Shown here piece by piece: positions 1,274 to 62,905 of a DNA stretch of 64,000 nt. A program made the translations under genes and the position numbers. The notes under the pieces are model-generated. The model saw only the letters and a program-made list of their open reading frames with translations, ran no database searches and was not told the origin of the DNA. Location: NCBI GenBank assembly GCA_031970715.1, contig DALYHV010000001.1, forward strand, positions 9,251-73,250. The letters run 5' to 3'. Numbering within the stretch: the first letter of the stretch is position 1; each line of letters starts with the position of its first letter. Source of the stretch: Gallionella sp. (lineage in GTDB: Bacteria; Pseudomonadota; Gammaproteobacteria; Burkholderiales; Gallionellaceae).

Positions 1274-2437
1274 TCACACCTCCCGCACCACGTCGCCGGT
1301 AACTTGTGGAATTCCGATGTCTGCCGCGCTGTTCATGGCCGCCGTCAACAGGTTGCCAACCGCCAGCGGGTACAGCAGAGACACGTTTTCACGGCGATTG
1401 CGGTTGGTGGTCAAGGTCAGCTTGTCGCGCAGGGCATCCATGCCGGACTTGTCGATAATTTCCCCCACGTTCTTGCCAACGCGTGAAAATTTGAACTTCA
1501 AGAAATCTTCCAGCGTGGCATCCATCGGCGTCAGTTCGATGATTTCGCAGCGCTGCACCACCTCGCGCACTTCATGGTTGTTTTCCGCCAGCTTCATCTT
1601 CAGTTCTGGCTGGCCGATCAGCACGATGCCCAGCAATTTCTTGAAGCCGTCTTCCAGCTCGAAAAAGCGTTTCAAGTGCTTCAAGGTAGGCACGGGCAAA
1701 CTATGCGCCTCTTCAATCACCAGCAGGTGGCTATTCCCGGCGCGGGAACTATCGCGCAGAATGCGGTGCAGTTGGCGGAAGCGCGCTTCCGGGCTTTGTT
1801 TTGGGCGTTCCAACGGAGCCACGCTGTGGATAATCGCCTCGGCAATGTGCGCAGATTTCAGCGTCTTGCCCTTCTTGTCGTTGTCTTCCATCGCCAGCAC
1901 GTAGGGTTCAATCACCACCACCGGCAGGCTTTCGCGCTGAATGCGGTCATTCAGGTCGCGGCGCAGGGTCGATTTACCCGCGCCGGACTCACCCACCACC
2001 GCCACAAATCCGCCATGCCGGGCACACTGGTGCAACACCTCGCGCACCAGGCGCACGTCCGGGCTGAGAAAAACGTCCTCCGCCGAGCGGATTTCGTCGT
2101 TGAACACATCGCGGGTCAAGCCGAAATGGCGTTTGGCTTCTGGATGCAAACCTTGTTTTCGTAGTAACATAATGTCCTCCGTTGTTGATGTTGCTGCTGT
2201 CTGGATGCCCTCAACCGGGCCATCCGCCTTAAACAGGCCGGTCAAATCGTTTGCTCCGATCCCGGCCTCCTTCAAAAATCCCCGAATCCCGTCCTGCAAA
2301 TGCGCCTGATCCATCGAGCGCGGCCACTGGCCATGATTCAGCAACTGGGTAATCGCCGCAGGTGATACCCCTAAATGTTCTGCCAGTGCGCGCTGCGACT
2401 TCCCCGCCCGCGCCAGCAATGTCCTGATTTGTTTCAT
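1274..2437 (-). CDS. Mu B-like transposition ATPase (N-terminal HTH + AAA+ domain)
   Basis: 387 aa. N-terminal HTH-like KSQRALAEHLGVSPAAITQLL, Walker A GESGAGKST, Walker-B-like LLVIEEAH. Sits immediately downstream of, and overlaps by 4 nt, the DDE transposase as in the Mu A-B pair. Confidence 0.8.
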   Translation of the reverse strand: MKQIRTLLARAGKSQRALAEHLGVSPAAITQLLNHGQWPRSMDQAHLQDGIRGFLKEAGIGANDLTGLFKADGPVEGIQTAATSTTEDIMLLRKQGLHPEAKRHFGLTRDVFNDEIRSAEDVFLSPDVRLVREVLHQCARHGGFVAVVGESGAGKSTLRRDLNDRIQRESLPVVVIEPYVLAMEDNDKKGKTLKSAHIAEAIIHSVAPLERPKQSPEARFRQLHRILRDSSRAGNSHLLVIEEAHSLPVPTLKHLKRFFELEDGFKKLLGIVLIGQPELKMKLAENNHEVREVVQRCEIIELTPMDATLEDFLKFKFSRVGKNVGEIIDKSGMDALRDKLTLTTNRNRRENVSLLYPLAVGNLLTAAMNSAADIGIPQVTGDVVREV

Positions 2438-3969
2438 CGCGCACCTCCCGCCACCAGCTTGAGCTTCCCGCGTGCCAGCCAGCGCTCGGCAATCTCGCCC
2501 ACCTGATCTTCCGCCGCCCCGTCTGGGTAAGTTTCCACCAGCCAGCGGTAGCTATCTGCCGTCCAGTCCGCACCCAACCGCCCCTTCAACAGCTTGGCCA
2601 GCGCGACATGCGACAACTTGGGCATCTCCACCCGTGGCGCAGTCAAACTGTGCTCAGTCCCGCGCTTCGGCAGATACGTCGGCAACTTGTCCTCTTCGAT
2701 ATGCTTGTAGGGGTCGAGCTTGCCGCCAAAGGGCAGCGCCTTGCCCTTGCGCGCCGCCGCAGCAGCTTCCAGGCTGTCCGTACCAGTGACCAGCTTTTCG
2801 ATTTCCTTCAGGGCGGTTTGTGCGGGGGTATCGGCCACGCGTTTGTAGCCTTCTCCGAACATGACATCAGTGCTGGCATAGCCGCCGTCCACAATTTCAA
2901 CCAGTGGGCAAACGTGATACACCTCTTGACCATGCTCATCGGTCATCACCACCTGTGCGGTGTCGTCGCGCCATGGATTCCGTGTCACCAGGACTTTTTC
3001 TTTCACCATCACGCCCGGTACCTTGCTCACGTCGTATTCGTTGCCCTGGTAGCTCACGCGCAGCTTCGGCGATACCACCCGTTTATCTGGTGTGCGAACA
3101 GATAATTCCCGGCACACCTCAACCGAGGGAGCTTTAATCAACTGTTCCGGCTTGATGCTCAACCACATCTGCGTGCGCGTCATGCCGTGACGGCTGTGGA
3201 TCGCCGTGGCATTGAAGTGCGCACACCACTTGGTAGCCAGCTCATTCAAATGCGCTTCGTCGCGCACCGTCATAAAAGTCAATCCGGCCTCGAACTTACG
3301 CTCTACGATGTCCTGAGCCTTTTCCACCTGCCCAGTGGCGCGGGCATTTTTCGGCGCGTGCCATTTCATTTTGACGCCCAGCGCCCGGCACATGTTTTGC
3401 GTCATACCCGCCGTCATTGCCGCACCCGGATCTGTGTACAGCCATTCCGGCAATCCGTGCAGCACGTCCCCGTTGCCACGCTCCTGCATGGTGTCAATCA
3501 GGAAGTCGCACAAGTTCTGCCCGGACTCTGCCCCCATGTAGTACTGCACCCGAATCCAGCCAGAGTAATGCTCGGTGCAAACCCAGCGCCCCACCCGGTC
3601 AGCCATGATGCGATCCAGATTCTTCGGCTTGTTCTTATAGAACTCGTCCCGCTCCATAATGTGCAAACCGTTTTCAGATTTCTTCTGGGACGGCTTCAGG
3701 TAATACAACACGCACATACTCCAGTCCGCTTCCCACACATGATTCGGGTGTTTAGTCCGCACGCTCACCACCGGAGCCGGGGCCAGCAACTGTTGCGGAT
3801 GCAGACCGTGCGTTCGCAGGGCGCGAGTAATGGCCGACTCCGACAACTGGCGCACCTCCCCAGTGGCTTCATCCACATAATCCGCCTTGATAAAGCCATT
3901 GCTGCGCAACACCGCCACCGCATCCGCCACGGTGTAAAGCTGCTTGCCGTTTTTTCTGGCCGACTCCAT
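2434..3969 (-). CDS. DDE (rve-type) transposase, MuA-like but with a short N-terminal DNA-binding region
   Basis: ORF-track 2434..3999 starts at a TTG; the first ATG is at 3969 (MESARKNGKQLYTV...). Catalytic-core signatures HVWEADWS and LYTDPGAAM. 511 aa. Confidence 0.8.
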   Translation of the reverse strand: MESARKNGKQLYTVADAVAVLRSNGFIKADYVDEATGEVRQLSESAITRALRTHGLHPQQLLAPAPVVSVRTKHPNHVWEADWSMCVLYYLKPSQKKSENGLHIMERDEFYKNKPKNLDRIMADRVGRWVCTEHYSGWIRVQYYMGAESGQNLCDFLIDTMQERGNGDVLHGLPEWLYTDPGAAMTAGMTQNMCRALGVKMKWHAPKNARATGQVEKAQDIVERKFEAGLTFMTVRDEAHLNELATKWCAHFNATAIHSRHGMTRTQMWLSIKPEQLIKAPSVEVCRELSVRTPDKRVVSPKLRVSYQGNEYDVSKVPGVMVKEKVLVTRNPWRDDTAQVVMTDEHGQEVYHVCPLVEIVDGGYASTDVMFGEGYKRVADTPAQTALKEIEKLVTGTDSLEAAAAARKGKALPFGGKLDPYKHIEEDKLPTYLPKRGTEHSLTAPRVEMPKLSHVALAKLLKGRLGADWTADSYRWLVETYPDGAAEDQVGEIAERWLARGKLKLVAGGAR

Positions 3970-4000
3970 CAGCGCCGCCGAAACGAAATGATGGGGCAAT

Positions 4001-5554: not shown

Positions 5555-7039
5555 TTACAGTTTGGAATGGGTGAGGTGCAGCAGCAAGTCGCTCACGGAC
5601 TCGTGCAGGATGTCCGCAAACGGCAGCGGATACAGCCCCATGCCCAGCACAGTGATGGCCAGAATGGCCAGAATCACGGTTTCGCGTGCGTTGATGTCGG
5701 TCAGCTCTGCGACGTGATGGTTGGCAATCTTGCCGAAAATCACGCGCTTGTACATCCACAGGGTGTATGCCGCACCGAAAATCAGCGTGGTCGCCGCCGC
5801 GAAGCCGTACCAGAAGTTCACCTTGATGGCGGCCATGATGACCATGAATTCACCGACGAAGGCGCTGGTGCCGGGCAAGCCGCTGTTGGCCATGGCAAAC
5901 AGCATGAAGAAGGCAGCAAACACGGGCATGCGATTGGCTACGCCACCGTAAGCGGAAATTTCACGCGAGTGAACGCGGTCATACAACACACCGATACACA
6001 GGAACAGCGCACCGGCGACGAAGCCATGGGAAATCATTTGCAACAGTGCGCCTTCGATGCCGTACTGATTGAAAATAAAGAAGCCCAGGGTGACAAAGCC
6101 CATGTGCGAAATGGAGGAGTAAGCCACCAGTTTCTTCATGTCCTTTTGCATCAGCGCCACCAGACCAATGTAGATCACCGCGATCAGCGACAGGGCAATC
6201 ATCACCCCAGCCAGTTTGTGGCTGGCATCCGGGGCAATCGGCATGGAGAAACGCAGGAAGCCGTAAGCACCCACTTTCAGCATGATGGCCGCCAGCACCA
6301 CGGAACCACCGGTAGGCGCTTCCACGTGGGCGTCTGGCAACCAGGTGTGTACCGGGAACATCGGCACTTTCACTGCGAAGGCCAAGAAGAAGGCGATGAA
6401 AATCAGGATCTGCGCCGTCATCGGGATGGGTAGATGGTGGAAGTCCTGAATCGAGAAGCTGCCGCCGGACAGGTTGTACAGATAAACCAGCGCCACCAGC
6501 ATCAACAGCGAACCCAGCAATGTGTACAGGAAGAACTTCACCGCCGCATACACGCGGTTCGGGCCACCCCACACGCCGATGATGATGAACATCGGGATCA
6601 GCATGGCTTCCCAGAACACGTAGAACAGCACCGCATCCAGTGCGGCGAACACGCCATTCACGATCCCCGACATAATCAGGAAGGCGGACATGTACTGTGC
6701 GACACGCTTTTCAATCACTTGCCAGCCAGCCAGCACCACGATGGGGGTGAAGAAGCTGTTGAGCAGGATAAATAGCATGGAAATGCCGTCTACCCCCAGA
6801 TGGTAATGAATGTTGAAGCGGGCAATCCAGCCGTGCAACTCGACGAATTGCATGGCGCTGGTGCCACGATCAAAGCCAGTGTACAGCGGCAAGGTCACCA
6901 AGAACCCCAGCACACCACCGACCAAGGCAATTTTGCGTGCCAAGGGTGCGTTTCGGTCATCACCAGTTGCCATGACCAAGATGCCGAAAATGATCGGCAG
7001 CCAAATTGCAACGCTGATTACGGGTAATCCAAAAATCAT
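5555..7039 (-). CDS. nuoM: NADH-quinone oxidoreductase subunit M
   Basis: 494 aa. ND4-like block PMFPVHTWLPDAHVEAPTGGSV. Confidence 0.95.
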   Translation of the reverse strand: MIFGLPVISVAIWLPIIFGILVMATGDDRNAPLARKIALVGGVLGFLVTLPLYTGFDRGTSAMQFVELHGWIARFNIHYHLGVDGISMLFILLNSFFTPIVVLAGWQVIEKRVAQYMSAFLIMSGIVNGVFAALDAVLFYVFWEAMLIPMFIIIGVWGGPNRVYAAVKFFLYTLLGSLLMLVALVYLYNLSGGSFSIQDFHHLPIPMTAQILIFIAFFLAFAVKVPMFPVHTWLPDAHVEAPTGGSVVLAAIMLKVGAYGFLRFSMPIAPDASHKLAGVMIALSLIAVIYIGLVALMQKDMKKLVAYSSISHMGFVTLGFFIFNQYGIEGALLQMISHGFVAGALFLCIGVLYDRVHSREISAYGGVANRMPVFAAFFMLFAMANSGLPGTSAFVGEFMVIMAAIKVNFWYGFAAATTLIFGAAYTLWMYKRVIFGKIANHHVAELTDINARETVILAILAITVLGMGLYPLPFADILHESVSDLLLHLTHSKL

Positions 7040-7079: not shown

Positions 7080-9143
7080 TTATTCAAACCAAGTACGGAT
7101 GGTCAGCAGGATGAACACCCCCACGACCATGGTAAAGGCATAGTGGTAGATGTAACCGGATTGCAGGCGGCGTACCACGTAGGCCAGCTTGCCGACCAAG
7201 TTGGCGCTGCCGTTGACAATCAAACCGTCAATCAGCGTGCGATCACCGAATTTCCACAGCATGGTACTGGCACCGCGTGCACCACCAGCGAAGAACCAGT
7301 CGTTGAAACGGTCGAAGTAGTATTTGTTTTCCAGCAACGTGTGGATCCATTGGAACTTCTTCTGAATGGCAGCGGGAATGTCCGGGCGCTTCAGGTAGAA
7401 GAAGGCGGCCAGACCGACGCCAGCCAGTGCCAGCCAGAACGGCAGGGTGGTCAGGGCGTGCACGGCCATGGCGACGGGGCCGTGGAACTCTTCCTTCAGG
7501 TGGTGCATGGCTTCATGATGCTCGGCAATGAAAATCGCATCCTTGAAGTAGCCGCCGAACAGCATGGGTTCGATGGCGATGAAACCAATCAGCACCGACG
7601 GAATGGCCAGCAGCACCAGTGGCAGCCAAACTACCCAAGGGGTTTCGTGCGGCTTTTGACCGGGGGCCAGGCCATGATGGGCGTGGTCGTCATGATCGTC
7701 ATCGGCATGCGCGTCGTCATGGTGGTCATCCTCGGCAGCATGCGCAGCATGGGCATGGTCGTCGTGATGATGGGCCTTGCCGAAACGCTCTTCACCGTGG
7801 AACACCAGGAAGTACATGCGGAAGGAGTAGAAGGCCGTGACGAACACGCCTGCCACCACGGCAAAGTAGGCAAAACCAGCGACGGGCAGGTGCGACAGGG
7901 CCACCGCTTCGATGATGCTGTCCTTGGAGTAGAAGCCGGAGAAGAATGGCGTGCCAATCAGGGCCAAGGAGCCAATCAGCGAAGTGATCCAGGTAATCGG
8001 CATGTACTTGCGCAGGCCGCCCATGTTGCGGATGTCCTGATCGTGGTGCATGGCCATGATGACGCTACCGGCACCCAGGAACAACAGCGCCTTGAAGAAG
8101 GCGTGGGTCATCAGGTGGAAAATCGCCACGGAGTAAGCGGATGCGCCCAGTGCTACGGTCATGTAGCCCAGTTGCGACAGGGTGGAGTAGGCCACCACGC
8201 GCTTGATGTCGTTCTGGATGATGCCCAGGAAACCCATGAACAGCGCGGTAATCGAACCAATCACCATGATGAAGGACAGCGCGGTTTCAGACAGCTCGAA
8301 CATCGGCGACATACGCGCTACCATGAAAATCCCGGCGGTCACCATGGTCGCGGCGTGAATCAGTGCGGAAATCGGGGTGGGGCCTTCCATGGAATCTGGC
8401 AGCCAAACGTGCAGCGGGAACTGCGCCGATTTACCCATGGCACCGATAAACAGCAGGATGCAAATTGCCGTAATCAGGTTGACTTCCATCCCGGCGATGG
8501 GCGCGATGTCTTCCACGTGCTTGGCCACATTGGCGAACACGTCGCCGTAGTTCAGCGAACCGAACACCATCAGCACCAAGCCAATGCCCAGCAGGAAGCC
8601 AAAGTCACCAACACGGTTGACCAAAAAGGCTTTCAGGTTGGCGTAAATCGCGGTGGGGCGGGTGAACCAGAAACCAATCAGCAGGTAGGACACCAGGCCC
8701 ACGGCTTCCCAGCCGAAGAACAACTGCATGAAGTTGTTGGCCATCACCAGCATCAGCATGGAGAAGGTGAACAGCGAAATGTAGCTGAAGAAGCGTTGAT
8801 AGCCAGGGTCTTCGGACATGTAGCCGATGGTGTAGATGTGCACCATCAACGACACCGAGGTGACCACCAGCATCATGGTGGCGGACAGGCGGTCAATTAG
8901 GAAGCCGACTTGGAAAGTCGCCCCATCGGACACCAGCCAAGTGTAAACCGTGCCATCGAAAATGTGGCCTGCCATGACATCCTGAAAAATGCGCACGGCC
9001 TGGAAGAAGGCCACGGCGACCATGGTAATGGCGATACGGTGCGACCAAGTGCGGCCCAGTACCTTGCCAAACATGCCCGCAGCGATAGCACCCACCAAAG
9101 GCGCGAGCGGAACGACCAAGTAGTTTTGAATATCCATTTGCAT
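7080..9143 (-). CDS. nuoL: NADH-quinone oxidoreductase subunit L (with His/Asp-rich insert)
   Basis: 687 aa. ND5-like block QFPLHVWLPDSMEGPTPISALIHAATMVTAG. Confidence 0.95.
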   Translation of the reverse strand: MQMDIQNYLVVPLAPLVGAIAAGMFGKVLGRTWSHRIAITMVAVAFFQAVRIFQDVMAGHIFDGTVYTWLVSDGATFQVGFLIDRLSATMMLVVTSVSLMVHIYTIGYMSEDPGYQRFFSYISLFTFSMLMLVMANNFMQLFFGWEAVGLVSYLLIGFWFTRPTAIYANLKAFLVNRVGDFGFLLGIGLVLMVFGSLNYGDVFANVAKHVEDIAPIAGMEVNLITAICILLFIGAMGKSAQFPLHVWLPDSMEGPTPISALIHAATMVTAGIFMVARMSPMFELSETALSFIMVIGSITALFMGFLGIIQNDIKRVVAYSTLSQLGYMTVALGASAYSVAIFHLMTHAFFKALLFLGAGSVIMAMHHDQDIRNMGGLRKYMPITWITSLIGSLALIGTPFFSGFYSKDSIIEAVALSHLPVAGFAYFAVVAGVFVTAFYSFRMYFLVFHGEERFGKAHHHDDHAHAAHAAEDDHHDDAHADDDHDDHAHHGLAPGQKPHETPWVVWLPLVLLAIPSVLIGFIAIEPMLFGGYFKDAIFIAEHHEAMHHLKEEFHGPVAMAVHALTTLPFWLALAGVGLAAFFYLKRPDIPAAIQKKFQWIHTLLENKYYFDRFNDWFFAGGARGASTMLWKFGDRTLIDGLIVNGSANLVGKLAYVVRRLQSGYIYHYAFTMVVGVFILLTIRTWFE

Positions 9144-19942: not shown

Positions 19943-20977
19943 TTAGCCGTTTTGCGCTGCCAGTTGCTGGGTCAGCACCACCAGTTGTTCCAAGCGCGCC
20001 TTGGCGGCACCGCTGGCAATGGCTTCGCGGGCCTGTTCCACCCCATCGGCCAGCGTGTCCGCTAGTCCGGCCAAATAGATGCTGGCCCCAGCGTTCAGCA
20101 GCACGATATCACGCGCCGGGCCGGGCTGGTTGTCCAGCACGCCCAGCAGCATGTCCCGCGAGGCTTCTACATCGCGGGCGTGCAAGGTCGATAATTCGGC
20201 GGTTTGCAGGCCGAACTGCTGCGGATGTAGGGTGTATTCGTGCACTTCGCCGTCCTTCAACTCTGCCACCAGCGTTTTGCCGCTCAGGGTAATTTCGTCC
20301 AGCCCGTCCTCGCCATGCACAATCAGTGCCCGGCGGCTGCCCAGACGATGCAGCACCCGCGCCTGTATCCCCACCAAATCGGGATGGAACACCCCCATCA
20401 GTTGCTGCTTGGCCCCGGCGGGATTGGTCAGCGGGCCGAGGATGTTGAACAGCGTGCGCACGCCCAACTCGCGTCGCACTGGCGCGGCATGTTTCATGGC
20501 GCTGTGATAATTCGGCGCGAACATAAAGCCGAAACCGACCTGCGCGATACACTGCGCCGTCTGCGCCGGGGTCAGGTTGATATGAATGCCCAGCGCCTCC
20601 AGCACATCCGCGCTGCCGGATTGCGACGACACCGAGCGCCCGCCGTGCTTGGCCACCTTGGCTCCCGCTGCTGCTGCCACAAACGCCGCCGCCGTGGAAA
20701 TGTTGAAAGTATGCGCCCCGTCGCCGCCCGTGCCGCAGGTATCCACCAGACGCGGATCATCCGCCAGCGCCACCTTGGTGGATAACTCGCGCATCACCGT
20801 CGCCGCCCCGGCGATTTCGCCGATGGTTTCCTTTTTGATGCGCAGCCCGGTAATAATCGCCGCAATCATCACCGCCGACACCTCGCCGCCCATGATCTGG
20901 CGCATCAGCGCCACCATTTCGTCGTGGAAAATTTCGCGGTGTTCGATGATGCGCTTCAAAGCCTCTTGTGGTGTCAT
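19943..20977 (-). CDS. trpD: anthranilate phosphoribosyltransferase
   Basis: 344 aa. [28 protein letters not shown] and GPLTNPAGA motifs. Confidence 0.95.
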
Positions 20978-21543
20978 GGTTTACCCTCCAGAAAATTTTT
21001 CAGCATGGCATGCCCATGCTCGGTCAGAATGGATTCCGGGTGAAACTGCACCCCGTGTACCGCCAGCGTCTTGTGCCGCACGCCCATGATTTCGCCGTCG
21101 TCCGTCCAGGCGGTGACTTCCAGACAATCCGGCATGGTCTCGCGCTCAATCACCAGCGAATGGTAGCGCGTGGCAGTAAAGGGACTGGGCAGCCCGGTAA
21201 ACACGCTGCTGCTGTGATGATGAATCGGCGAAGTCTTGCCGTGCATCAACTGCTTGGCATGAATAATCCGCCCGCCAAACGCCTGGCCGATACTCTGGTG
21301 CCCCAGACACACGCCCAGAATCGGAATTTCCCCGGCAAAACGCTGAATCGTCGGCACCGACACCCCCGCCTCATTCGGCGTACACGGCCCCGGCGACAGC
21401 ACAATCCGCGCCGGCCTCAGCGCCGCAATTTGTTCCAGCGAAATCTGGTCATTCCGATGCACCACCACCTCTTCCCCCAGCTCCGCAAAATACTGCACCA
21501 GGTTGTAAGTGAAGGAATCGTAATTGTCGATCATCAATAACAT
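20974..21543 (-). CDS. trpG: anthranilate synthase component II / aminodeoxychorismate synthase glutamine amidotransferase
   Basis: Start moved to the ATG at 21543 ([19 protein letters not shown]). Catalytic GVCLGHQ and FHPES blocks. 4-nt overlap with trpD. Confidence 0.93.
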
Positions 21544-21650
21544 AAACACTCCAAAGGGAAAGGTCGGCTCGAAAATGCCGTGTGCAGCTTTTCCAAGACT
21601 CCCAACAAACGGCAAACGGGCGCGATTATCGCAGCGAGTGGCGGGGGCGT

Positions 21651-22073
21651 CTAATTCATTTGCTGCTCATGCCGCAGCAGCGTACCGGTGAATTGCAGGA
21701 AATCTTCCAGATGCTCGGTAATCACGCTAACCACGATGGGGATGAGCAAACTTTGGTAGTCATGCACGGCCAGATTGCGGAAGCCGACCATTTTTTTCAG
21801 CGATTCCGCCAGTGGCAAGTTAATCCGTCCCGCCTGCGCCAGTAAGTCAAACACTTGGCGCGCACTTTGCGGCAAGCCCAACTTGTCGCGCCGAATCAGG
21901 TGATGTCCCAAATCCAGCGCCGCCTCGCATGCCCGCTGAATGTTCAAAATCGCCGCATCCTGGCGCGAATAATCGGTCGCAAAATTCGCCCCCGCAGCGG
22001 CATACTCCTCGTGCACCCGCGCCACGCAGCGTTCAATGCTCGCTACCTTGTTCAACACCACATCATCGACCAT
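21651..22073 (-). CDS. hepT: HepT-like (DUF86/HEPN) toxin
   Basis: Start moved to the ATG at 22073 ([16 protein letters not shown]...). RX4HXY motif present as RNLAVHDY. Overlaps the upstream nucleotidyltransferase gene by 11 nt. Confidence 0.8.
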
Positions 22074-22497
22074 ACACCCTCCCATTTTGCGCAATATCGG
22101 CCAGCAACGCCGCCCGCCCCGCATCCAGCCGGATTTTTTCGCCCAGCACAAAACACTCGAACAACCCGGCTGCGGGTTCGCTGGCCCACAAGCGCTGTCC
22201 TTGCGTTAGCACCTGGTACTGCATCACCGTGGTCGCGGCGCGCAAATCCAGCAAATCGACCTCGCAGCCCAACCGCTCCGCCAATTCGCTCGCCAACGTC
22301 CACAACTGCAACGGCTCGGCATACCCCGCCACCAGCACCGCCAAATCCAGATCGCTATCCGCCCGCGCCGTGCCCTGAATCCGGCTGCCAAAGGCGTAAA
22401 TCGCCAACACCTGCGGCAGGGCATGGCGCAAAACCTGCACCACCGCACCGTTGGTGGACAATGCAGATTCGATAATTTCGATTGTGCAGCGACTCAT
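22063..22497 (-). CDS. mntA: MntA-like minimal nucleotidyltransferase antitoxin
   Basis: Start moved to the ATG at 22497 (MSRCTIEIIESALS...). GS-x10-DxD motif as GSRIQGTARADSDLDL. Precedes hepT as in canonical pairs. Confidence 0.8.
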   Translation of the reverse strand: MSRCTIEIIESALSTNGAVVQVLRHALPQVLAIYAFGSRIQGTARADSDLDLAVLVAGYAEPLQLWTLASELAERLGCEVDLLDLRAATTVMQYQVLTQGQRLWASEPAAGLFECFVLGEKIRLDAGRAALLADIAQNGRVYGR

Positions 22498-22614
22498 TGG
22501 ACACCCCAAATTTTGAACCGGCGGTAATGTACTGCAATGTGCCGCATAAACCAAACCGCAGCGTCATCACATGGCAAATACTTGTCCGCATAAAGGTTGA
22601 TTGTCACCAGGTTG

Positions 22615-22666
22615 CATACCAGACCTGCCATATAATTCCACCGCGCAGCCAATTCAATCTGGTATG
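22615..22666 (+). promoter_or_regulatory. 9-bp perfect inverted repeat bracketing a TATAAT hexamer just upstream of the orphan gene
   Basis: CATACCAGA (22615-22623) and TCTGGTATG (22658-22666) are exact reverse complements. TATAAT lies at 22631-22636 between them, and the ATG of the large gene is at 22674. Function not established. Confidence 0.3.
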
Positions 22667-22673
22667 ACTACAA

Positions 22674-25600
22674 ATGGCCAAGAAGAAGAAATTAAGCAAT
22701 CCCTTTTCCACCGGCGGTGGCGGTGTTCATTTTGAAGCACATGTCCAAGCCAGTTTTGTTGCGTTAATGCTCACTGGTGGTCATGCTCCCTGCCTTCCCT
22801 GCTGGCCCATTCGGAAAGTCAAACTTCAGGGCAAGATTGACGGCTTCGATACAGATGACCTTGTTGTTTTCGTAGAAGATACGAACAGCAAGGAGCAACG
22901 GAAACTCCTCGGACAGATCAAACATTCTGTTGCTATCACTCAGGGCAGCACCTTGTTTGGCGAAGTGATACAAGCCGCTTGGAATGACTTAACAATCCCA
23001 AGGTATTCACGAGAGGTAAAGATGTTATTGCCCTGATTACAGGATCACTCGGCACGACCGATGCACACAACGTCCAATGGATACTGAGCCAAGCAAGACA
23101 TACCAAGAGCGTTGATGAATTTTTCAGAAACGTCCAGCAGGCAAATTTTAGTCCCGCCAAAAGTGCTGAAAAACTGGCGGTCATTCAGTACCACCTGAAA
23201 ACTGTAAACGGCGGTAACGATGTTTCAAGGGACGACCTTTATGAGTTCCTGAACCACTTCCATCTACTCGGCTATGATCTTGGCAACGAGTTCGGTGTTG
23301 TCCTGTCTCTGCTGCACTCCCACATTTCCCAGTTCCAGCAACAGTCTCCACAATGGGTTTGGTCTCGAATTGTCGATATTGTACAAACCTGGAATCAGGA
23401 CGCTGGCACGGTCACTCCTGACAAGTTGCCAGATGATCTTCTGGAAGCATTTAAACAAAAAACTGTGGCAAAAATGCCCGAAGAATTCAAGGTAGCACAG
23501 GAACAACCTAAAACCGATTGGACTCATCACCCGGATGCCACCCATCTGGCCTTGGCGATTCTGATTGGCGCTTGGCAAGACAATAGTCAAAGTGACCGTG
23601 AAGCGATAACCCAGTTTCTCGGCATCCGTTATGACGAATGGCTAACGAAGGCGCGGGAATTATTACACTGCCCTGATAGCCCGTTGTCCATCAATAATGG
23701 CACCTGGAAAGTTGTTAATCGCGCCGAGCTTTTCTCCCTGCTGGGATCGCGCATTCTGGATCAGAACCTTGATACGTTTAGATTGCTGGCTGTTTCCGTG
23801 CTAAAAGAGCCAGACCCCGCCTTTGAACTGCCCGCCGAAGAACGTTACGCAGCAAACATTCATGGCAAGGTGCTGAAATGTTCTCACGTGTTGCGAAATG
23901 GCATTGCCGAAGGTTTGGCTATCTTGGGTAGCCAGCCGGAATCAGGCACGAACTGTTCGCAGCGAAAAGCTGAAGCAACCTGCATATTGGTGATACGTGC
24001 ACTTTTGATGGATGCCGATTGGGTTTTGTGGGGCAGCCTGAGTAATTTACTGCCTACCTTGGCTGAAGCCGCGCCCGGTGAATTTCTTAATGCAGTCGAA
24101 AATGCGCTGCGCCTGACGCCCTGCCCCTTTGATACGCTTTTTTCTCAGGAAGGTAGTGGCATCACCGGCAACAATTATTTGACTGGCCTGCTTTGGGCGT
24201 TGGAAGGATTAGCTTGGGATGAGCAATATCTGGTTCATGCCTGCGTCATACTTGCCGAGCTTGCCAGCCATGACCCCGGTGGCAGATGGACTAATCGCCC
24301 ATCCAATTCGTTGAAAACCATTTTGCTACCTTGGCTGCCACAAACGCTGGCTCCTGTTGAAAAGCGCAAGGTGGCAGTGAGAACCATTCTTAATGAATGG
24401 CCAGATATCGCCTGGAATTTGATTATTCAGCTTCTCCCTAATCAGTTCCAAACCTCCACCGGGTCGTACAAATCCCGTTGGCGCAAAACCATCCCCAAAG
24501 ATTGGGAAAACGTTACACATCAGGAATACTGGCAGCAAATTTCTTTTTATGCAGAACTGGCCGTGGCTACCGCAGGCCAAGATGCCGTTCAACTTTCAAC
24601 ATTGATCGACCATTTTGATAGCCTGCCTGAACCTGCTGTTGAACAGCTTCTCCAAGTTCTCTCCTCCCAGTCCATTGCAGCACTGCCTGAAGAGCAACGA
24701 CGCTTGATTTGGAACCATCTCACGAAATTCACCAACAAATATCGGCGCTTCTCTGATGCAAAAGGGGTGTTGCCCGACGAGCTGATTACCCGCATTGAAC
24801 AAGTTGCCAAGAAACTCGCGCCTCTCAACCCGTTCCATTTATATCAACACCTTTTTACCGATCATGATGCGGATCTTTACGAAAAGGGGGAAAACTGGGA
24901 GGAGCGGCGAAACAAACTCGAAACAAAACGTGAAACGGCCATTACAACAATCTTTCAGCAACAAGGGGCGGAGAGAGTCATCCAGTTTGCCGAATCTGTC
25001 TCTTTACCTGGCCAGGCAGGCTACACACTTGGCGCTCTCCACGATTCAATCATTGAAAAAAATCTGCTGCCTCGCTTTCTGGATGCTGCGGAGAATAACC
25101 GGATGGCGTTGGTGAGCGGCTTTATCCGGCGACGTCACCACCTCAAAGGCTGGGAGTGGTGCGACGCCATCGATAAATCCGACTGGACACCGGAACAGAC
25201 CGCGCAATTCTTGGCTTATTTGCCGTTTACCAAGGAAGCCTGGGTACGTGCGCCTGAATGGTTACAAATACACGAAAAAGAATACTGGATCCGTACCCAC
25301 GCAAATGTTTGGACAGCAGAGGGTGACTATTCATTTGCGATTGAAAAACTCCTTGCCCATGGCAGGCCGCATGCTGCCATCAATTGCTTGTACAGAATGT
25401 GCTATGACAAGCAGCCAATCGATACGAATCAATGTGTTCGTGCATTGCTCACAGCACCTTCCTCCAGCGAACCCGGCTACGCCATGGACGGGTACCACAT
25501 TGTTGAACTGATCAAGTTCCTTCAGGCCGAGCCTTCGGTTAACCAGGACGACCTCTTTAGAGTCGAGTGGGCTTATGTCCCCTTGCTCGATCGTCATAGA

Positions 25601-26212
25601 GACGCTGCGCCCAAACTTCTTGAAAGCAGACTGGCCAATGACCCCGCATTCTTTTGCGAGGTAATTCGACTGATCTACCGATCCAAGAAAGAAAATCAGC
25701 CATCAAGAGAGCACACCGAGGAATCAAAGGCCATCGCAACAAATGCTTGGCGGCTGTTGCATGAATGGAAGACACCGCCTGGAACCCAAAAAGATGGGAC
25801 ATTCAGCGCAGCGCATTTCACCGCATGGTTGCAAAAGGTCAAAGAGGTCTGTGTGGAATCCGGCCACTTGGAAGTTGCACTCGGCAGTATCGGGGAAGTA
25901 TTGACACATGCCCCACCCGATCCTGGCGGATTATGGATACATCACGCTGTCGCTGCTGCATTGAACGATCGTGAGACTGATGACATGCGTAACGGGTTTA
26001 GAACCGGGATATACAACTCTCGCGGCACTTATTGGGTTGATCCAAGCGGCAAACCCGAAATGGCGTTGGCTGAACAGTTTCGACATAAAGCCGAAGAAAT
26101 TGAGAACGCTGGCTTTCAGCGCTTTGCCGTCACCTTGAAAAGTTTGGCGAGTAGCTTTGAACGAGAGGCGGAACAAGTAATCAGGGAACACCAAAATCGG
26201 GACGATGATTAG
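22674..26212 (+). pseudogene. large orphan gene (about 1,179 codons) interrupted by one frameshift; nuclease-like N-terminus plus long helical body
   Basis: The frame-3 ORF 22674..23036 and the frame-2 ORF ending at 26212 form one reading unit. Frame 2 is open from 22988, well upstream of the track's first Met at 23426, and reads LNNPKVFTRGKDVIALITGSLGTTDAHNVQWILSQARHTK... The two frames overlap only over 22988-23036. GC is visibly lower than the flanks. Confidence 0.65.
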
Positions 26213-26262: not shown

Positions 26263-26313
26263 CTAACCATTCGCACCGAACATCATGCGCTTGGCGACGA
26301 AGCGTTTGGCCAG
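26263..26313 (-). other. orphan fragment: last 16 codons plus stop of a UbiH-family gene
   Basis: The reverse strand reads LAKRFVAKRMMFGANG*, identical to the C-terminus of the gene at 53437..54744. 44/51 nt are identical to 54694-54744 and all 7 differences are synonymous. There is no similarity upstream of the Leu codon. Confidence 0.8.
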
Positions 26314-26408
26314 CAGCGCGAAGTTTAATCTGAGGTGAAATTCAGGGTGCGCATGGCTGCCGGATTCGGGTTTGTCGCAGAAAGGGGTAAGTGAGTGTCG
26401 TTCTGTGG

Positions 26409-27341
26409 TTAAACCACGCCCGCCTTTTCCGCCTGTTCGTCGGCAAAGTAGCTGGAGCGCACCATGGGGGCGCAGGCGGCGTGGTCGAAGCCCATGTCTT
26501 TGGCCGCTTGTTCCAGCATGGCGAAGGTTTCCAGTGGGGCGTAGCGCAGCACCGGCATGTGGCCGTCGGAGGGTTGCAGGTATTGGCCGATGGTCAGCAT
26601 GTTGACGCCGTGGGCGCGCAAATCACGCATGACTTCCAACACTTCTTCATCGGTTTCGCCTAGGCCCAGCATCAGGCCGGATTTGGTGGGAACGTTGGGA
26701 AAGCGGGTTTTGAAGTCTTGCAACAGTTTCAGCGAATGGACGTAATCGGCACCGGGGCGGGCCAGTTTGTACAGACGCGGCACGGTTTCCAGATTGTGGT
26801 TCAGCACGTCGGGCAAGCCGGTGGCCAAGGCGTCCAAGGCTTCGTTCAAGCGGCCACGAAAATCCGGCACCAGAATTTCCAGCCGGGTGTCGGGCGAACT
26901 GGCGCGAATCGCGGACAAACAATCCACGAAATGTTGCGCGCCGCCGTCACGCAGGTCGTCCCGATCCACGCTGGTAATCACCACGTATTTCAAATTCAGC
27001 AAGCCAATGGAGCGCGCCAGATTGGCCGGTTCGTCTGGGTCGGGCGGCTGTGGTTTGCCGTGCGCCACGTCGCAAAACGGACAGCGCCGGGTGCAAATGT
27101 CGCCCAGGATCATGAAGCTGGCGGTGCCTTTGCTGAAACATTCGCCGATGTTAGGGCAGGAGGCTTCTTCGCACACGGTGTGCAACTGGTGCTCGCGCAG
27201 CAGGCGTTTCACGTCGTGGTAGCCGGTGCCGCTACCGGCTTTGACGCGAATCCATTGTGGCTTGCGCAGGCGCTCGGCCAGCGGGACGATTTTGATCGGG
27301 TTGCGCGCGGTTTTGGCCGCGCCAGTTTGTTTTTCGGACAT
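26409..27341 (-). CDS. lipA: lipoyl synthase
   Basis: Start moved to the ATG at 27341 ([10 protein letters not shown]...). Cysteine motifs [12 protein letters not shown] and [10 protein letters not shown]. 310 aa. Confidence 0.93.
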
Positions 27342-45752: not shown

Positions 45753-46355
45753 ATGGCTGTTTTGGTAGGCAAACCCGCTCCCGATTTCAATGCAGTTGCT
45801 GTTATGGGCAACAATGAGATCAATGAAAACTTCAACTTCAAGAGCTTCATCGCTGGCAAGCCCGCCGTGCTGTTCTTCTACCCGCTGGATTTCACCTTCG
45901 TTTGCCCCTCCGAGCTGATCGCCTTTGATCACCGCCTGGCCGAATTCCAGAACCGCAATGTGCAAGTGATCGGCGTGTCGATTGACTCCCAATTCACCCA
46001 CCTGGCCTGGAAAAACACCCCCGTCAATCAAGGCGGCATTGGTCAAGTTGGCTATCCGCTGGTGGCCGACATCAAGCACGAAATCTGCCAAGCCTACGAC
46101 GTGGAACACGCGGCTGGCGTGGCCCTGCGCGGCTCCTTCCTGATCGATGCCGCCGGTGTGGTGCGTCACCAAGTGGTGAATGATTTGCCACTGGGCCGTG
46201 ACATCGACGAAATGCTGCGCATGGTCGATGCCCTGCAATTCCACGAAACCCACGGCGAAGTCTGCCCCGCAGGCTGGAACAAGGGCAAGGCCGGCATGAA
46301 GGCCTCCACCGCTGGCGTGGCCGAATACCTGGCCGAAAACGCTTCCGCGCTGTAA
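45753..46355 (+). CDS. typical 2-Cys peroxiredoxin (AhpC/Prx1 subfamily)
   Basis: 200 aa. Peroxidatic Cys in DFTFVCPSE, resolving Cys in GEVCPAGW. RBS AGGAGA. Confidence 0.92.
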   Translation: MAVLVGKPAPDFNAVAVMGNNEINENFNFKSFIAGKPAVLFFYPLDFTFVCPSELIAFDHRLAEFQNRNVQVIGVSIDSQFTHLAWKNTPVNQGGIGQVGYPLVADIKHEICQAYDVEHAAGVALRGSFLIDAAGVVRHQVVNDLPLGRDIDEMLRMVDALQFHETHGEVCPAGWNKGKAGMKASTAGVAEYLAENASAL

Positions 46356-46376
46356 CTCTCTTCACTCCATCGGAGG

Positions 46377-46742
46377 ATGGCGATGCACGAATGGCTGGTT
46401 GAACTGGTGGCACACATCGTGCCCTGGACCGAAGCCGTCGGCATCGCCATTGTCCTGTGGGGCGCGCTGGAAGGGCTGTTCAAACTCTTGATGCGTTTGG
46501 GCAGCCTGTTTAATCCGGCCCACCGCCCCCTCCCCATCAGTCAAATCCGCCTCGCCATCGGCGAAAAAATCGCCCTCGGCCTGGACTTCTTCCTGGCGGG
46601 CGACATCATCCAAACCATCATCATCCCCAGTTGGCAATCCCTCGCCATCCTCGGCGGCATCGTCGTTATCCGCACCATCATCGCCTTCTTCCTCAACCGC
46701 GATTTGAAAGAATTTGCGGCGGAATCGGCAGCGCACAACTGA
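46377..46742 (+). CDS. DUF1622-like small membrane protein
   Basis: 121 aa with three hydrophobic helices (IALGLDFFLAGDIIQT block). Family name recalled from memory. Confidence 0.6.
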   Translation: MAMHEWLVELVAHIVPWTEAVGIAIVLWGALEGLFKLLMRLGSLFNPAHRPLPISQIRLAIGEKIALGLDFFLAGDIIQTIIIPSWQSLAILGGIVVIRTIIAFFLNRDLKEFAAESAAHN

Positions 46743-46761
46743 CCCGTTGCTTGCCTTTACC

Positions 46762-46792
46762 GTAGGGTGCAATAAGCGCAGCGCATTGCGCC
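46762..46792 (+). repeat. REP-like hairpin element GTAGGGTGCAATAAGCGCAGCGCATTGCGCC
   Basis: Near-identical copies at 61559-61590 (+), 61614-61644 (inverted) and 62827-62857 (+). Confidence 0.8.
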
Positions 46793-46810
46793 AAGGTCAC
46801 GGGAGGAAAT

Positions 46811-48016
46811 TTAATCCACCGTCACTTGGCCGTTCATCAGCAGGGGCAGGAGCCAGTCGCGTAGTTCGGTCAGATGTTGATTTTCCTCAATTCCGTGCCT
46901 GATTTTTAGATACCAACACTGTGCTATGGCCTCATAACTTAATGCGACACTTTCGGTCGGTAGCGTAATAACGGATTCTTTAAGAAACTTGAAGTGCCGT
47001 GCATATCCATAATTCGAGAGGTCTATGTCTTTCAGCATTTGGTACAAAAGGTGCGGAGGCGCATTTTTTTTGTTTGATATTAAAACCTGAGTTCCATCTG
47101 CCCCACGAGCGTAATCAAAATTCACTAGTTTAAATATGCGGGTGTGGTCACCAAATACTACATGCGCAGACTTAACAGCTAACCGTGCACTTTCATTTTT
47201 GGTAAAACCACATATAAAACTTGTACCTTGGTCAACAACGGGAATACGGCCATTTGCAAGTATTTCTTTGCTGGGTACGCTTTCACTTCGGGGTGCTGAA
47301 CCCAAAATCTCTTCTACCAGTTTGACCTCCCACCCCTCCGGCACTTCCCGTTTCAGGGTGGGGTTGTAAACCATTTTGCCACCGGAGCTGCGGTAGGGTT
47401 GGCCGTGCTGGTCGGGGAAGTCGAATTGGACGAACCAGTAGTCGTACAAGGTTTTCGCCATCGCCTCCAACTCGGCATTGATGCGGTTGTTGCAGTCAAT
47501 TTTCTGATTAAGTAAATACAGAAAGTCACCAGCCTTTACCTGCTCATCATATTCAAGTAGCAACAAATCAAGATAAGAAAATATATCTTCGTTCAAGCTC
47601 GCTCTGAGTGTTAGAACGGCATTGTTTGTCATCGTTTTTCTGAACAAAGAACTCCTCAAATAAAACGCCATAAATTTTGGATAGGCAGATTTTTCTCGTA
47701 CTGGCCGAAGTCTTTTAAGGAATCCGCTATAAGTTGCATGTGAATATGCTTTAAGCGCTACTGAACTCATGCCAAGTTCATCAACAACTTCGCTTGTCCT
47801 CGTTAAAAAAATATCTCCTTCTTTTATAGAGTATTTTTCTTGTTCTCGTTCGGATGAGTCCATCCGTTCAATTAGCTCATTCGGTAAAAAATAATTTTTG
47901 AATACAGTGGAAAACGATAGGAAGGGTGCCCCGTGTCCAGCCTGCTCTGGTTTGGATGAAATACCCGATGCCATTTGATACAAATCAGCAAATTTGTGAC
48001 GAGTTAATTTACTCAT
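46811..48016 (-). CDS. hsdS: type I restriction-modification specificity subunit
   Basis: 401 aa. Its ATG overlaps a copy of the hsdM-type tail (TATGAGTAA). Two variable AT-rich halves are separated by a conserved GC-rich spacer and followed by a conserved C-terminal region. Confidence 0.85.
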   Translation of the reverse strand: MSKLTRHKFADLYQMASGISSKPEQAGHGAPFLSFSTVFKNYFLPNELIERMDSSEREQEKYSIKEGDIFLTRTSEVVDELGMSSVALKAYSHATYSGFLKRLRPVREKSAYPKFMAFYLRSSLFRKTMTNNAVLTLRASLNEDIFSYLDLLLLEYDEQVKAGDFLYLLNQKIDCNNRINAELEAMAKTLYDYWFVQFDFPDQHGQPYRSSGGKMVYNPTLKREVPEGWEVKLVEEILGSAPRSESVPSKEILANGRIPVVDQGTSFICGFTKNESARLAVKSAHVVFGDHTRIFKLVNFDYARGADGTQVLISNKKNAPPHLLYQMLKDIDLSNYGYARHFKFLKESVITLPTESVALSYEAIAQCWYLKIRHGIEENQHLTELRDWLLPLLMNGQVTVD

Positions 48017-48413
48017 ACCTCAACCCCGCCAACTGTTTTTGAATCTCCTGCTCCAACCCCGCCTTCAAAATTTCAAAGTAATGACTCCAGGTCAATTTGT
48101 GAGACAGCGTCTCACTATTTTGGAAACTCAAGTACAGCTTGCGCATGTAGAACACATTGGAGCGACTGAAGCCCTTGCCATGCAAGGCGCTCAGGTCTTT
48201 GGACAGGCGATCCAGCAGGCCGCTGCCGTAGTCGGCTTTTTCTTTGCCGCCTTGTTCAAATTCCACAATGTGCTGGCCGATGTGCCAATAGGTTTGCACC
48301 AGCAAGGTGTTGACGGTCTGGGCGGCTTGTTGCCGGGCGGCGTGCAGGGCTTGCCCGATGTCGTGCAGCAAACTTTGATACGCCCCGGCCTGCGTGGAAA
48401 TTTCCTTATTCAT
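48009..48413 (-). pseudogene. truncated DUF1016 (YhcG-like) gene: N-terminal domain only, fused to a duplicated hsdM tail
   Basis: 134 codons from the ATG at 48413 (MNKEISTQAGAYQSLLHDIGQALHAARQQAAQTVNTLLVQTYWHIGQHIVEFEQGG...). There is no C-terminal PD-(D/E)xK nuclease domain. The last 17 aa (AGLEQEIQKQLAGLRYE) copy the hsdM C-terminus. Confidence 0.7.
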
Positions 48414-50040
48414 AGCGCAACCCCGCCAACTGTTTTTTAATCTCCTGCTCCAGCCCCGCCGATTCGGCAAACAGCGCGTCCAGCCGGGTGGTAAAGCCTT
48501 GCATCTTGTCGGTAAATTCTTGCGGGGTGAGGGCGCTGTATTCAATCCTGACCTCGAAATACTGCCCGGCGCTGAGGCTGTAATTTTTGGCGGCGATGTC
48601 GGCGTAGCTGACCAGCACGGAGAAATCTTCCACCGCTTGTTTGGCATTGAAGGTGGCGATGATGCGGTCTTCTTCGGCGCTGGAGAGCAGGGTTTTCTGG
48701 TTTTTGCCGTCCTTGACCTTGGTGCCGAGGTTGGAGGCGTCGATCAGCACCACGCCGTCCTGATTGGCGCGGTTGATAAACAGAATCGACACGTTGGTGC
48801 CGGTGGTGGCGAAGATGTTGCTGGGCATGGACACCACGCCCGCCAGCATTTTGTGCTCGACCAGATGCTCGCGGATTTTGCGGTCGATGCCGCTTTGCGC
48901 GGTGATAAAGCCGGTGGGCACCACGACTGCGGCTTGCCCGCCGGGTTTCAGGCTGTGGATGATGTGCTGGAGAAAGAGCTGGTAAATGGCCATTTTCTCC
49001 GTGGCCTGTTTGGGGATGTTGGGAATCCCGGCAAAGAAGCGCGCGCGGTTTTCCTCGCTGTCCAACTGGTTGCGAAAGTCGCTGAAGTCCATCTTGAACG
49101 GCGGGTTGGAGACGATGTAGTCAAATTTTTTCAGGCGTGTGCCGTCGCGGTGCGCCGGGTGCAGCAGGGTGTTGCCCTGGATGATGTTGGGGATGGAGTG
49201 CACCAGGTTGTTCAGAATCAGGTTCAGGCGCAGCAGGCCGGAGGATTTTTGCGAAATGTCCTGCGAATACAGGCTGCAACGCTGCTCACCGATGGCGTGG
49301 GCAATGTTCATCAGCAAAGTGCCGGAGCCTGCCGAGGGGTCGTAGCAACTGACATTGCGCACCAGACCGCGCTGGCTGTCCGGCACCAGAATGGCGGCCA
49401 TGATTTTGGCCACGGCGTGCGGGGTGTAGTACTCGGCGTATTTGCCGCCGCTGTCCTTGTTGTAGTCCTTGATGAGGTATTCAAACAGCCCGGCGTAAAA
49501 GTCGTATTTTTCGTTGAAGATGCGCTCGAAGCTGAATTCCACCAGCTTGTTGATGATGGCTTTGCAAAAAGCGTCACGGCGGTTGGGGTCGGTGATGTAT
49601 TCGCTGACGCGATCAAACAGCGTCACTTTCGCCCCGCCGTCGGTTTTGACGGCAAAAATTTCATTGTTGCTGCTGGCAATGTCGCGCAGGGTGTCGTCAA
49701 ACAGGCGGGCAAAACCGGCTTCGTTCTGACGGGCAAATAGGTGGGCGATAAAGTGCTCTGGCTTTAAACGGGCAGTGTCCGCACTCACCTGCATTTGCAA
49801 TAGCTCCAGCTCGTCCGCGCTGAGGGCGGCATAGGCGGCTTCCCATTTGTCGGCCTGGCGCAAGTTCTCATCCAGTTTTTTGATCTCAAAGGCGAATTTG
49901 TCATTGAGGAATTTGTACAGAAAAACCTGGGTGATGATTTTGAATTCGTTGCCGTCGTTGCCCAGTCCGTAGGTGGCGCAGATGGCTTTGAGGTTGTCGA
50001 TCAGTTGTCGGGTTTGTTGCGAAAAATCCAGTGTTACCAA
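48406..50040 (-). CDS. hsdM: type I restriction-modification DNA methyltransferase subunit
   Basis: 544 aa. SAM motif DPSAGSGTLL and catalytic NPPF (IVSNPPFKMDF). Confidence 0.93.
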   Translation of the reverse strand: MVTLDFSQQTRQLIDNLKAICATYGLGNDGNEFKIITQVFLYKFLNDKFAFEIKKLDENLRQADKWEAAYAALSADELELLQMQVSADTARLKPEHFIAHLFARQNEAGFARLFDDTLRDIASSNNEIFAVKTDGGAKVTLFDRVSEYITDPNRRDAFCKAIINKLVEFSFERIFNEKYDFYAGLFEYLIKDYNKDSGGKYAEYYTPHAVAKIMAAILVPDSQRGLVRNVSCYDPSAGSGTLLMNIAHAIGEQRCSLYSQDISQKSSGLLRLNLILNNLVHSIPNIIQGNTLLHPAHRDGTRLKKFDYIVSNPPFKMDFSDFRNQLDSEENRARFFAGIPNIPKQATEKMAIYQLFLQHIIHSLKPGGQAAVVVPTGFITAQSGIDRKIREHLVEHKMLAGVVSMPSNIFATTGTNVSILFINRANQDGVVLIDASNLGTKVKDGKNQKTLLSSAEEDRIIATFNAKQAVEDFSVLVSYADIAAKNYSLSAGQYFEVRIEYSALTPQEFTDKMQGFTTRLDALFAESAGLEQEIKKQLAGLRYE

Positions 50041-53129: not shown

Positions 53130-53436
53130 CGCTCCGTCCTTGTGTACTGGCTTGCCAGGGCAGGCATCATAAGGGGTTTGCCGACATTGTGCCATCCGTG
53201 GGCAGGCATAAGGGGTAGCTGCTGCTGCGCCCGCCGGTTTCGGCTTTGCACTATAGGCCGTGGGCAATCAGGTCGCTGAGGTTGCAGCAAATTGGCCAAA
53301 CACGCTTTTCCCGGAAAAAATTTATTCTCCGCATTTTGCGCGGCGATTGCGCCGGATATTCGCCGCACGGAGCGGTGTGTCCCAACCCGGTAACCACCGC
53401 AGGTATAATGCGCCGACTTTTGTGCGAGGGGCGATC

Positions 53437-54799: not shown

Positions 54800-54904
54800 G
54801 TACGTGCTTGGGCAGATTTTTTGGGAACCCCGATTAAACCCGTTCGCCCTGAGCTGGTCGAAGGGCGCTTGGCGTTGACTTCTCCGTTCATGGTTCGACA
54901 AGCT

Positions 54905-54987: not shown

Positions 54988-54991
54988 GCGT

Positions 54992-61644: not shown

Positions 61645-61664
61645 CGACTACAAAAGGAGCAACC

Positions 61665-62857: not shown

Positions 62858-62905
62858 AGATGTGCTAACGATTACCGACTAGCAGCTACCGACTAGGAGA
62901 ACAGC

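Follow-up and report, generated by a model that had tools for sequence, protein, structure and literature searches.

How does a 51-nt copy of the end of a conserved ubiquinone biosynthesis gene come to lie alone, inverted and 28.4 kb away from the intact gene? This question is raised by a stretch of 64,000 nt of Gallionella sp. DNA (the window), in which the last codons of a UbiH-family gene are repeated beside lipA, at the border of a low-GC islet. We asked what the orphan copy is, which allele it comes from and what kind of event could have left it there.

The orphan copy and its counterpart

The orphan lies at 26263-26313 on the minus strand and corresponds to the final 16 codons of ubiH and its stop codon; the 3' end of ubiH itself occupies 54694-54744 on the plus strand. 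The reverse complement of 26263-26313 reads CTGGCCAAACGCTTCGTCGCCAAGCGCATGATGTTCGGTGCGAATGGTTAG, and 54694-54744 reads TTGGCCAAGCGTTTCGTCGCCAAACGCATGATGTTTGGGGCGAATGGTTAA; both encode LAKRFVAKRMMFGANG followed by a stop. The two copies are inverted relative to each other, 28,358 nt apart, and agree at 44 of 51 positions. All seven mismatches are synonymous: one first-position change in a Leu codon (TTG/CTG), five third-position changes and the exchange of stop codons (TAA/TAG). Direct comparison thus bears out the original prediction of an inverted copy of the ubiH end that differs at synonymous sites only, stop codon included. The chance of a 44/51 match somewhere in 128,000 positions is about 7e-15, which excludes chance similarity. 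For seven random substitutions, the probability that none is nonsynonymous lies between 2e-5 (without transition bias) and 1e-4 (at kappa 4), and random decay of a local duplicate is likewise excluded.

Perfect identity between the orphan and the ubiH tail extends over 11 nt at most, and the three identical runs of this length are the residue expected from codon constraint alone. The two copies belong to the longest inverted repeat in the window (I1, 26264-26324 / 54683-54743, 61 nt, 84% identity), so weak similarity reaches approximately 10 nt past the Leu codon, to 26324, and then ends. No trace of ubiH-like sequence is found upstream of the Leu codon past these ~10 nt. The similarity had been described as stopping abruptly upstream of the Leu codon; the end is indeed abrupt, though some 10 weakly similar nucleotides come before it. 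Read upstream, the frame of the orphan (26263-26463, minus strand) runs on without a stop for 67 codons or more, into the 3' end of lipA, which is read in a different frame; the ORF list of the window contains no ORF of 60 aa or more at 26263-26463 on the minus strand. This open frame is probably a chance occurrence in GC-rich DNA.

Three contigs of the same strain, from two ENA samples, repeat the junctions: on the orphan side L071 and L072, which come from different samples, and on the gene side L001, which shares its sample with L071. An assembly artefact is therefore unlikely, and we take the orphan to be real. The position in the lipA 3' region might suggest a functional non-coding element (an RNA, a terminator or a regulatory site), or the resemblance to ubiH might be accidental. 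Both ideas are vanishingly improbable given the chance value above, the lack of an Rfam match and of terminator or promoter matches, an ordinary folding energy (z = -1.24) and the restriction of the motif in relatives, almost without exception, to the ends of full-length ubiH genes.

The intact ubiH-family gene

The intact gene (53437-54744, plus strand) codes for a UbiH-family FAD monooxygenase of 435 aa with Pfam FAD_binding_3/DAO matches, and its 3' end is unbroken with the gene body. The product passes the NCBIfam UbiH/UbiF/VisC/COQ6 subfamily model TIGR01988 with 318 bits (cut-off 224.65). It scores 350 bits with the UbiH equivalog TIGR01984, under the cut-off of 392, because a 47-aa insert splits the match. 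The underlying DNA is an in-frame, palindromic, G/C-rich insert of 97 nt at 53829-53925 (arms 53829-53867 / 53887-53925), which adds about 47 aa to UbiH (...SPSHLSPPPCRGRDREGV...PLQGGRS...). It is common to L081, a Logan contig from a strain with 92% DNA identity, and missing from other relatives; ubiH of the related locus L065 has a different insert roughly 10 residues further along. The arm motif has no other occurrence in the window.

Just 3' of the ubiH stop codon, a terminator-like hairpin followed by a T run can be discerned by eye, and maeB comes next. Downstream of ubiH, 54830-54990 comprises a REP-like motif, GTTCGCCCTGAGCTGGTCGAAGGGC, and after it tandem repeats of 23 nt (…CCACCACGAACGGAGACTAAATC…). 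In another related locus, L027, a similar motif, CGTTCGCCCTGA, comes after an orphan ubiH tail.

Source of the orphan allele

A degenerate pattern for the shared peptide matches 45 loci in genomes of species representatives, a single one in each genome and all in Gallionellaceae or Nitrosomonadales MAGs, as well as 24 metagenome contigs. Viral contigs scanned with the same pattern contain no copy of the ubiH tail. Apart from 13 matches truncated by contig ends, all matches end long ubiH frames, the one exception being the orphan in L027. The original prediction had allowed that the 51-mer might prove to be a multi-copy dispersed repeat unrelated to UbiH-family genes. The peptide-pattern searches lead us to reject this, given single copies in the 45 species representatives, matches that end ubiH frames and empty viral contigs. 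No second intact ubiH paralogue is seen among the 45 species representatives and 24 metagenome contigs.

The ubiH tails of other species match either window copy at 33-46 of 51 positions. The closest comparison is provided by L081, a 4.3-kb contig that ends 8 nt past ubiH and represents the sole close strain compared. Its tail is intermediate between the two window copies: 48/51 positions agree with the gene tail and 47/51 with the orphan, and of the variant sites three are common to L081 and the orphan and four to L081 and the gene. All four changes specific to the orphan relative to the L081 tail are synonymous. Judging from the intermediate position of L081 and these four synonymous changes, the allele behind the orphan is about as diverged as a sister strain; the orphan carries no nonsynonymous change and so has been orphaned only briefly. 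These alignments indicate that the orphan evolved in a closely related Gallionellaceae lineage, where it ended a working ubiH. The earlier suggestion that the fragment once terminated a functional homologue is supported by both the non-random, synonymous-only pattern and the intermediate L081 tail. The first 6 nt after the ubiH stop (CCTGTT) are identical in the window and L081, so the junction of gene body, tail and downstream sequence looks native in the intact gene.

Islet and lipA breakpoint

On its left side, the orphan is preceded by nuo genes, secG, tpiA, trpD and trpG, which are all on the minus strand, then by a HepT/MNT toxin-antitoxin pair and lastly by an 1180-aa gene. The toxin-antitoxin pair (21651-22497, minus strand; Pfam HepT-like and Polbeta/NTP_transf_2, L071 gene table) forms the trpG side of the islet. 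The low-GC core is a frameshifted copy of the widely transferred 1180-aa gene (22674-26212, plus strand, GC 0.50), which converges on the orphan and stops at 26212, 50 nt from it. Of its two ORFs, 22674-23036 corresponds to residues 1-119 of P0002/P0003 and 23426-26212 to residues 252-1180 approximately. The protein has more than 2000 homologues, with 73-78% amino acid identity in Chlorobium, Planctomycetes and Gammaproteobacteria. Pfam, NCBIfam and PADLOC yield no match for it. At the DNA level, other copies resemble the gene precisely from start codon to stop codon. At the loci inspected (L073-L077), the homologue is always a single gene in unrelated contexts, some of them defence-like. The islet was considered as an element targeting ubiH and rejected, since these contexts have no ubiH tail nearby.

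To the right, a 95-nt spacer with an abrupt junction (26314-26408, minus strand) separates the orphan from the lipA stop codon (26409-26411), which confirms the predicted geometry of an inverted copy at the islet border, 95 bp from lipA. The spacer resembles neither ubiH nor the downstream regions of lipA in relatives, and has no terminator or promoter match and no fold signal (z = -1.24). The lipA gene (lipoyl synthase by Pfam; 26409-27341, minus strand) is followed by a polysaccharide cluster of 16 kb, a tolC-like gene, pcm, ahpC, a type I R-M system, ubiH (plus strand) and maeB. Within the window, no duplicated ends of lipA, of trpG or of the ubiH flanks are found.

The 3' flank of lipA is a synteny breakpoint. 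Its neighbours differ from those in the window in all relatives fetched: lipB-lipA in L079, queC-lipA-toxin/antitoxin genes in L078, ybeY-lipA-glyQ in L083 and lipA-DUF302-cytochrome genes in L084 and L085. Given that the lipA flanks differ in every relative and that the spacer has no detectable similarity to the flanks examined, the orphan sits at a lineage-specific breakpoint; that it marks a rearrangement breakpoint had been proposed.

The surroundings of ubiH are variable on one side. In relatives, a conserved block, read from sequence as amgK-murU-pepP-ubiH, precedes downstream genes that vary (xthA, dusB, prlC, fba, pyk or a cyclase-FHA gene); the window has no amgK-murU-pepP block. As the genes vary after a conserved block, the ubiH 3' end is a synteny boundary rather than a classical island site, and accessory DNA beside ubiH is to be expected in donors. 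The stretch between ahpC and ubiH holds the type I R-M system in the window (45753-53436) and a DUF1622 gene plus a 499-aa gene of unknown function in L081 (275-3023). This difference in content identifies it as a variable cassette site. A 32-nt REP-like palindromic repeat (GTAGGGTGCAATAAGCGCAGCGCATTGCACCA) occurs at 46762-46793, 61613-61644 and 62827-62858, and two perfect inverted copies of it bracket an HpcH/HpaI-type lyase ORF (61584-62810).

Inversion of the intervening segment

The original prediction also offered the orphan as one arm of an inversion. Flipping 26314-54693 would rejoin the ubiH gene body to the orphan in frame, and the UbiH protein would be identical either way, so the tails could be the arms of an invertible 28.4-kb segment that is still flipping, whether by site-specific or by homologous recombination. 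In E. coli, RecA needs roughly 23-27 bp of identity to recombine DNA efficiently. The longest perfect identity between the arms, 11 nt, is below this and counts against such a segment. There is no recombinase adjacent to either arm, and the match of the 6 nt downstream of the intact gene with L081 marks that junction as native. The three same-strain contigs (L001, L071 and L072, from two ENA samples), a small contig-level sample, show the present junctions only. On these grounds an actively flipping segment is not supported and is highly improbable. Inversion also cannot explain where the tails came from, because both must exist beforehand.

Strand composition was examined at four-fold sites. 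The trpD-trpG-HepT-MNT block has a plus-strand G/C skew of -0.34, and the 1180-aa gene has one of -0.20; the flanks show +0.14 and +0.16 (10-20 kb and 26-55 kb), and the first 10 kb have -0.21. The contrast between 19943-26212 and its flanks may reflect rearranged blocks or codon bias. The skew of 26.4-54.8 kb matches the flanks and does not indicate a recent flip of that segment, a reading confounded by codon bias; with nearly all genes on one strand, codon bias and strand bias are inseparable here. The sequence downstream of lipA in L084 and L085 was sought on either side of the putative inversion, with no significant similarity.

Other orphan gene ends

The orphan is not the only one of its type. 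In L065, an orphan ubiH end of 93 nt lies 1.06 kb downstream of the gene (1668-1757 / 2730-2819), with a cyclase-FHA gene as cargo and eight synonymous and two nonsynonymous changes. In L062, the orphan ubiH end is 283 nt long and 2.4 kb downstream (1148-1439 / 3548-3839), with two ORFs (393 aa and 130 aa) as cargo and a synonymous/nonsynonymous count of 15/10; it continues into 43 nt of duplicated downstream sequence. A 17-nt tandem repeat precedes it. Both of these orphans are from metagenome contigs. The orphan ubiH tail in L027 (contig CAVRDK010000004.1, 1.5 Mb; 6031-6145) spans about 115 nt, the intact gene being outside the 8 kb examined; the usual downstream cyclase-FHA gene is found inverted on the other side of this orphan.

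Gene ends other than that of ubiH are also affected. The Gallionella MAG L078 has a 70-nt orphan lipA end (7363-7432 vs 8261-8330), 0.9 kb downstream of lipA and separated from it by an antitoxin gene, with seven synonymous and two nonsynonymous changes. This orphan is 88.6% identical to lipA of MAG L083 and 84% to the lipA of its own genome. The window itself contains a 54-nt orphan hsdM end (48009-48063, minus strand), consisting of the last 17 codons plus stop. It is 91% identical to 48406-48460 (repeat D13), lies 397 bp downstream and differs by three synonymous changes and one nonsynonymous change. It is fused in frame, across an abrupt boundary, to a truncated DUF1016/PDC-S02 ORF (48009-48413, minus strand) and directly precedes a low-GC hsdS (GC 0.43).

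In all four cases with both copies visible (L062, L065, L078 and hsdM of the window), the copies are direct repeats, with the orphan 0.4-2.4 kb from the intact gene, an abrupt boundary and most changed codons synonymous. The inserts between the duplicated tails of L062, L065 and L078 contain only a lipoprotein-like gene, a cyclase-FHA gene or an antitoxin. No recombinase is found near any of the four duplicated ends, and footprints of this type thus recur in the clade without integrases.

These cases bear on the idea that the orphan is what remains of a complete second ubiH (a duplicate or xenologue) beside lipA, eroded by deletion to its last 51 nt. Such a gene would explain the selected allele, with the abrupt 5' boundary as the end point of the deletion, and would suit the heavy genome rearrangement around lipA. 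Yet none of the 45 species representatives with the peptide has a second copy, no trace of ubiH is left more than ~10 nt upstream of the Leu codon, and the other orphans of the clade are clearly displaced ends, not eroded paralogues. We regard erosion as unlikely, and note that it overlaps with the explanation preferred below and is hard to separate from it.

Recombinases and att sites

Pfam scans of the window ORFs, which provide the coverage of serine recombinases, reveal no integrase domain. A jackhmmer search seeded with XerC, run on all six-frame ORFs of the window and loci L001-L082, finds no tyrosine recombinase in the window and none beside ubiH or the orphan ends in these loci. Among the 69 related ubiH loci, it gives a single further match, to an XerC/D-like ORF in L011 that lies about 4 kb away from ubiH. 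Just downstream of nuoN, the region 1274-3999 (minus strand) encodes a 521-aa ORF with a weak match to rve (DDE integrase core; E 1.8e-5, below the Pfam cut-off), and next after it a 387-aa AAA_22 ATPase. The region may represent a TniA/TniB-like or Tn7-like transposition module. DDE transposase-like enzymes are not known to generate 51-nt gene-end copies. The expectation that no annotated recombinase explains the breakpoint is borne out for integrases, and needs qualification for this weakly DDE transposase-like ORF, 22 kb off.

Partial duplicates of tRNA genes or protein genes flank genomic islands, where they are the att sites of tyrosine recombinases. The orphan is similar in that a duplicated gene end marks a border; it differs in the absence of a tyrosine recombinase. 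A well-described example is the e14 prophage at icd in E. coli K-12, which leaves the orphan gene end icdC (Hill et al. 1989, as related in PMC13626634). The icd/icdC pair resembles our case in being a short copy of a housekeeping-gene 3' end at the border of foreign DNA, with mainly synonymous differences and an intact working gene. Unlike the orphan, e14 has its own integrase and is flanked by direct repeats (PMC13626634). In the window, searches find no integrase, and the two copies face opposite ways across 28.4 kb that contain housekeeping and polysaccharide genes.

The orphan might accordingly be the att-site relic of an integrase-driven island that targeted the ubiH 3' end and brought a replacement end, the island itself having later decayed and undergone rearrangement. 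The signature of such an element is a copy of the gene end that differs synonymously and restores the reading frame (PMC13626634). The duplicate in the window does encode the same gene end with differences that are mostly synonymous, it sits at the edge of foreign DNA, and orphan ubiH tails recur. Against this, neither a tyrosine recombinase nor a Pfam integrase domain is found in the window, and the XerC/D-like ORF in L011 is the only other match among the 69 loci. The small inserts of L062, L065 and L078 hold no more than the three kinds of gene listed above, and the viral contigs scanned lack the tail. The window copies are also inverted rather than direct, and in place of direct repeats bracketing a foreign element, lipA, the polysaccharide cluster, the tolC-like gene, pcm, ahpC and the type I R-M system intervene. 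We therefore judge an att-site relic decidedly unlikely.

Gene-end displacement

Closer parallels come from systems in which gene ends are displaced by recombination. In the sequential displacement model for T6SS effector-immunity arrays of Vibrio cholerae, orphaned 3' ends are left behind (PMC5361080), and C-terminal displacement with orphaned 3' ends is attributed to rhs loci in work cited there. As proposed for the orphan, displacement in these systems would need no integrase, only a homology anchor in a conserved gene and an illegitimate far joint; the old 3' end would be stranded by accessory genes, and such footprints turn up repeatedly at one locus (PMC5361080). The orphan allele offers homology for such an anchor, matching the L081 tail more closely than the tails of other species match either window copy (33-46/51). 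It is a 3' fragment of a conserved gene that adjoins accessory DNA across an abrupt, homology-free boundary. The T6SS and rhs genes are polymorphic toxins with variable 3' ends under diversifying selection (PMC5361080). The window differs in involving a conserved biosynthetic enzyme gene, both ends of which encode the same peptide, and in that the orphan is not directly downstream.

Homology-facilitated illegitimate recombination (de Vries and Wackernagel 2002, as cited in PMC5361080) likewise gives one abrupt, homology-free joint beside the allelic sequence of a related donor (PMC3240628). It has been demonstrated experimentally in transformation and conjugation of other bacteria (PMC3240628), and for the window it is an inferred route.

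Taken together, the orphan is probably a non-functional relic of a second ubiH allele, stranded by recombination-driven gene-end displacement, or hitch-hiking, that accompanied a gain of accessory DNA. The recombination route is inferred from the footprints described above. The 51 nt would be the last 16 codons of that second allele, derived from the working gene of a closely related Gallionellaceae lineage. Accessory DNA would have been gained by recombination and the orphan left at its border, with the incoming fragment carrying, or displacing, the end of the conserved gene beside its cargo, in the manner of homology-facilitated illegitimate recombination. One of the two joints would be illegitimate, which would produce the abrupt boundary at the Leu codon. 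As now placed, the orphan would have no function.

The orphan is not located just downstream of ubiH in the same orientation, as the duplicated ends of L062, L065, L078 and hsdM are. An inverted copy at 28.4 kb, compared with direct repeats at 0.4-2.4 kb, means that an extra step, either an inversion or a distant import, must be assumed. In the first route, a displaced tail would form as a direct repeat just downstream of ubiH, and an inversion of ~28 kb would then separate the tails, one of its breakpoints lying between them and the second after lipA. The closeness of the two copies would be explained in this way. In the second, the islet would be imported directly at the trpG-lipA junction together with 51-61 nt of the donor's ubiH. 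No donor configuration, with ubiH followed by the islet, is found among the loci fetched. Of the earlier proposal that the orphan is the displaced or imported end of a gene invaded at its 3' end, the displaced or imported end is retained, and the integrating element with a recombinase of its own is not.

A bolder reading is that gene ends such as those of ubiH, lipA and hsdM are recurrent entry points in Gallionellaceae for a distinct, integrase-free mode of insertion that preserves the target gene. Such insertion would supply or duplicate the last 50-300 nt of its target; candidates would be Campbell-type integration of circularised donor fragments or an unrecognised recombinase that reads gene ends. 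We consider this distinctly improbable. Were it true, the inverted 28-kb arrangement would be one of its products. The orphan is a footprint of a known kind and does not reveal a new kind of element.

The orphan can be regarded as a dated footprint: as it shows no nonsynonymous decay, accessory DNA beside ubiH was exchanged recently between sister lineages. It also marks the lipA-trpG junction as a rearrangement breakpoint. Together with the four similar ends, the orphan suggests that recombination at conserved gene ends, and not integrases, is the main way in which Gallionellaceae gain small defence or toxin-antitoxin islets, and footprints of this type help to reconstruct island turnover in these uncultured iron oxidisers.
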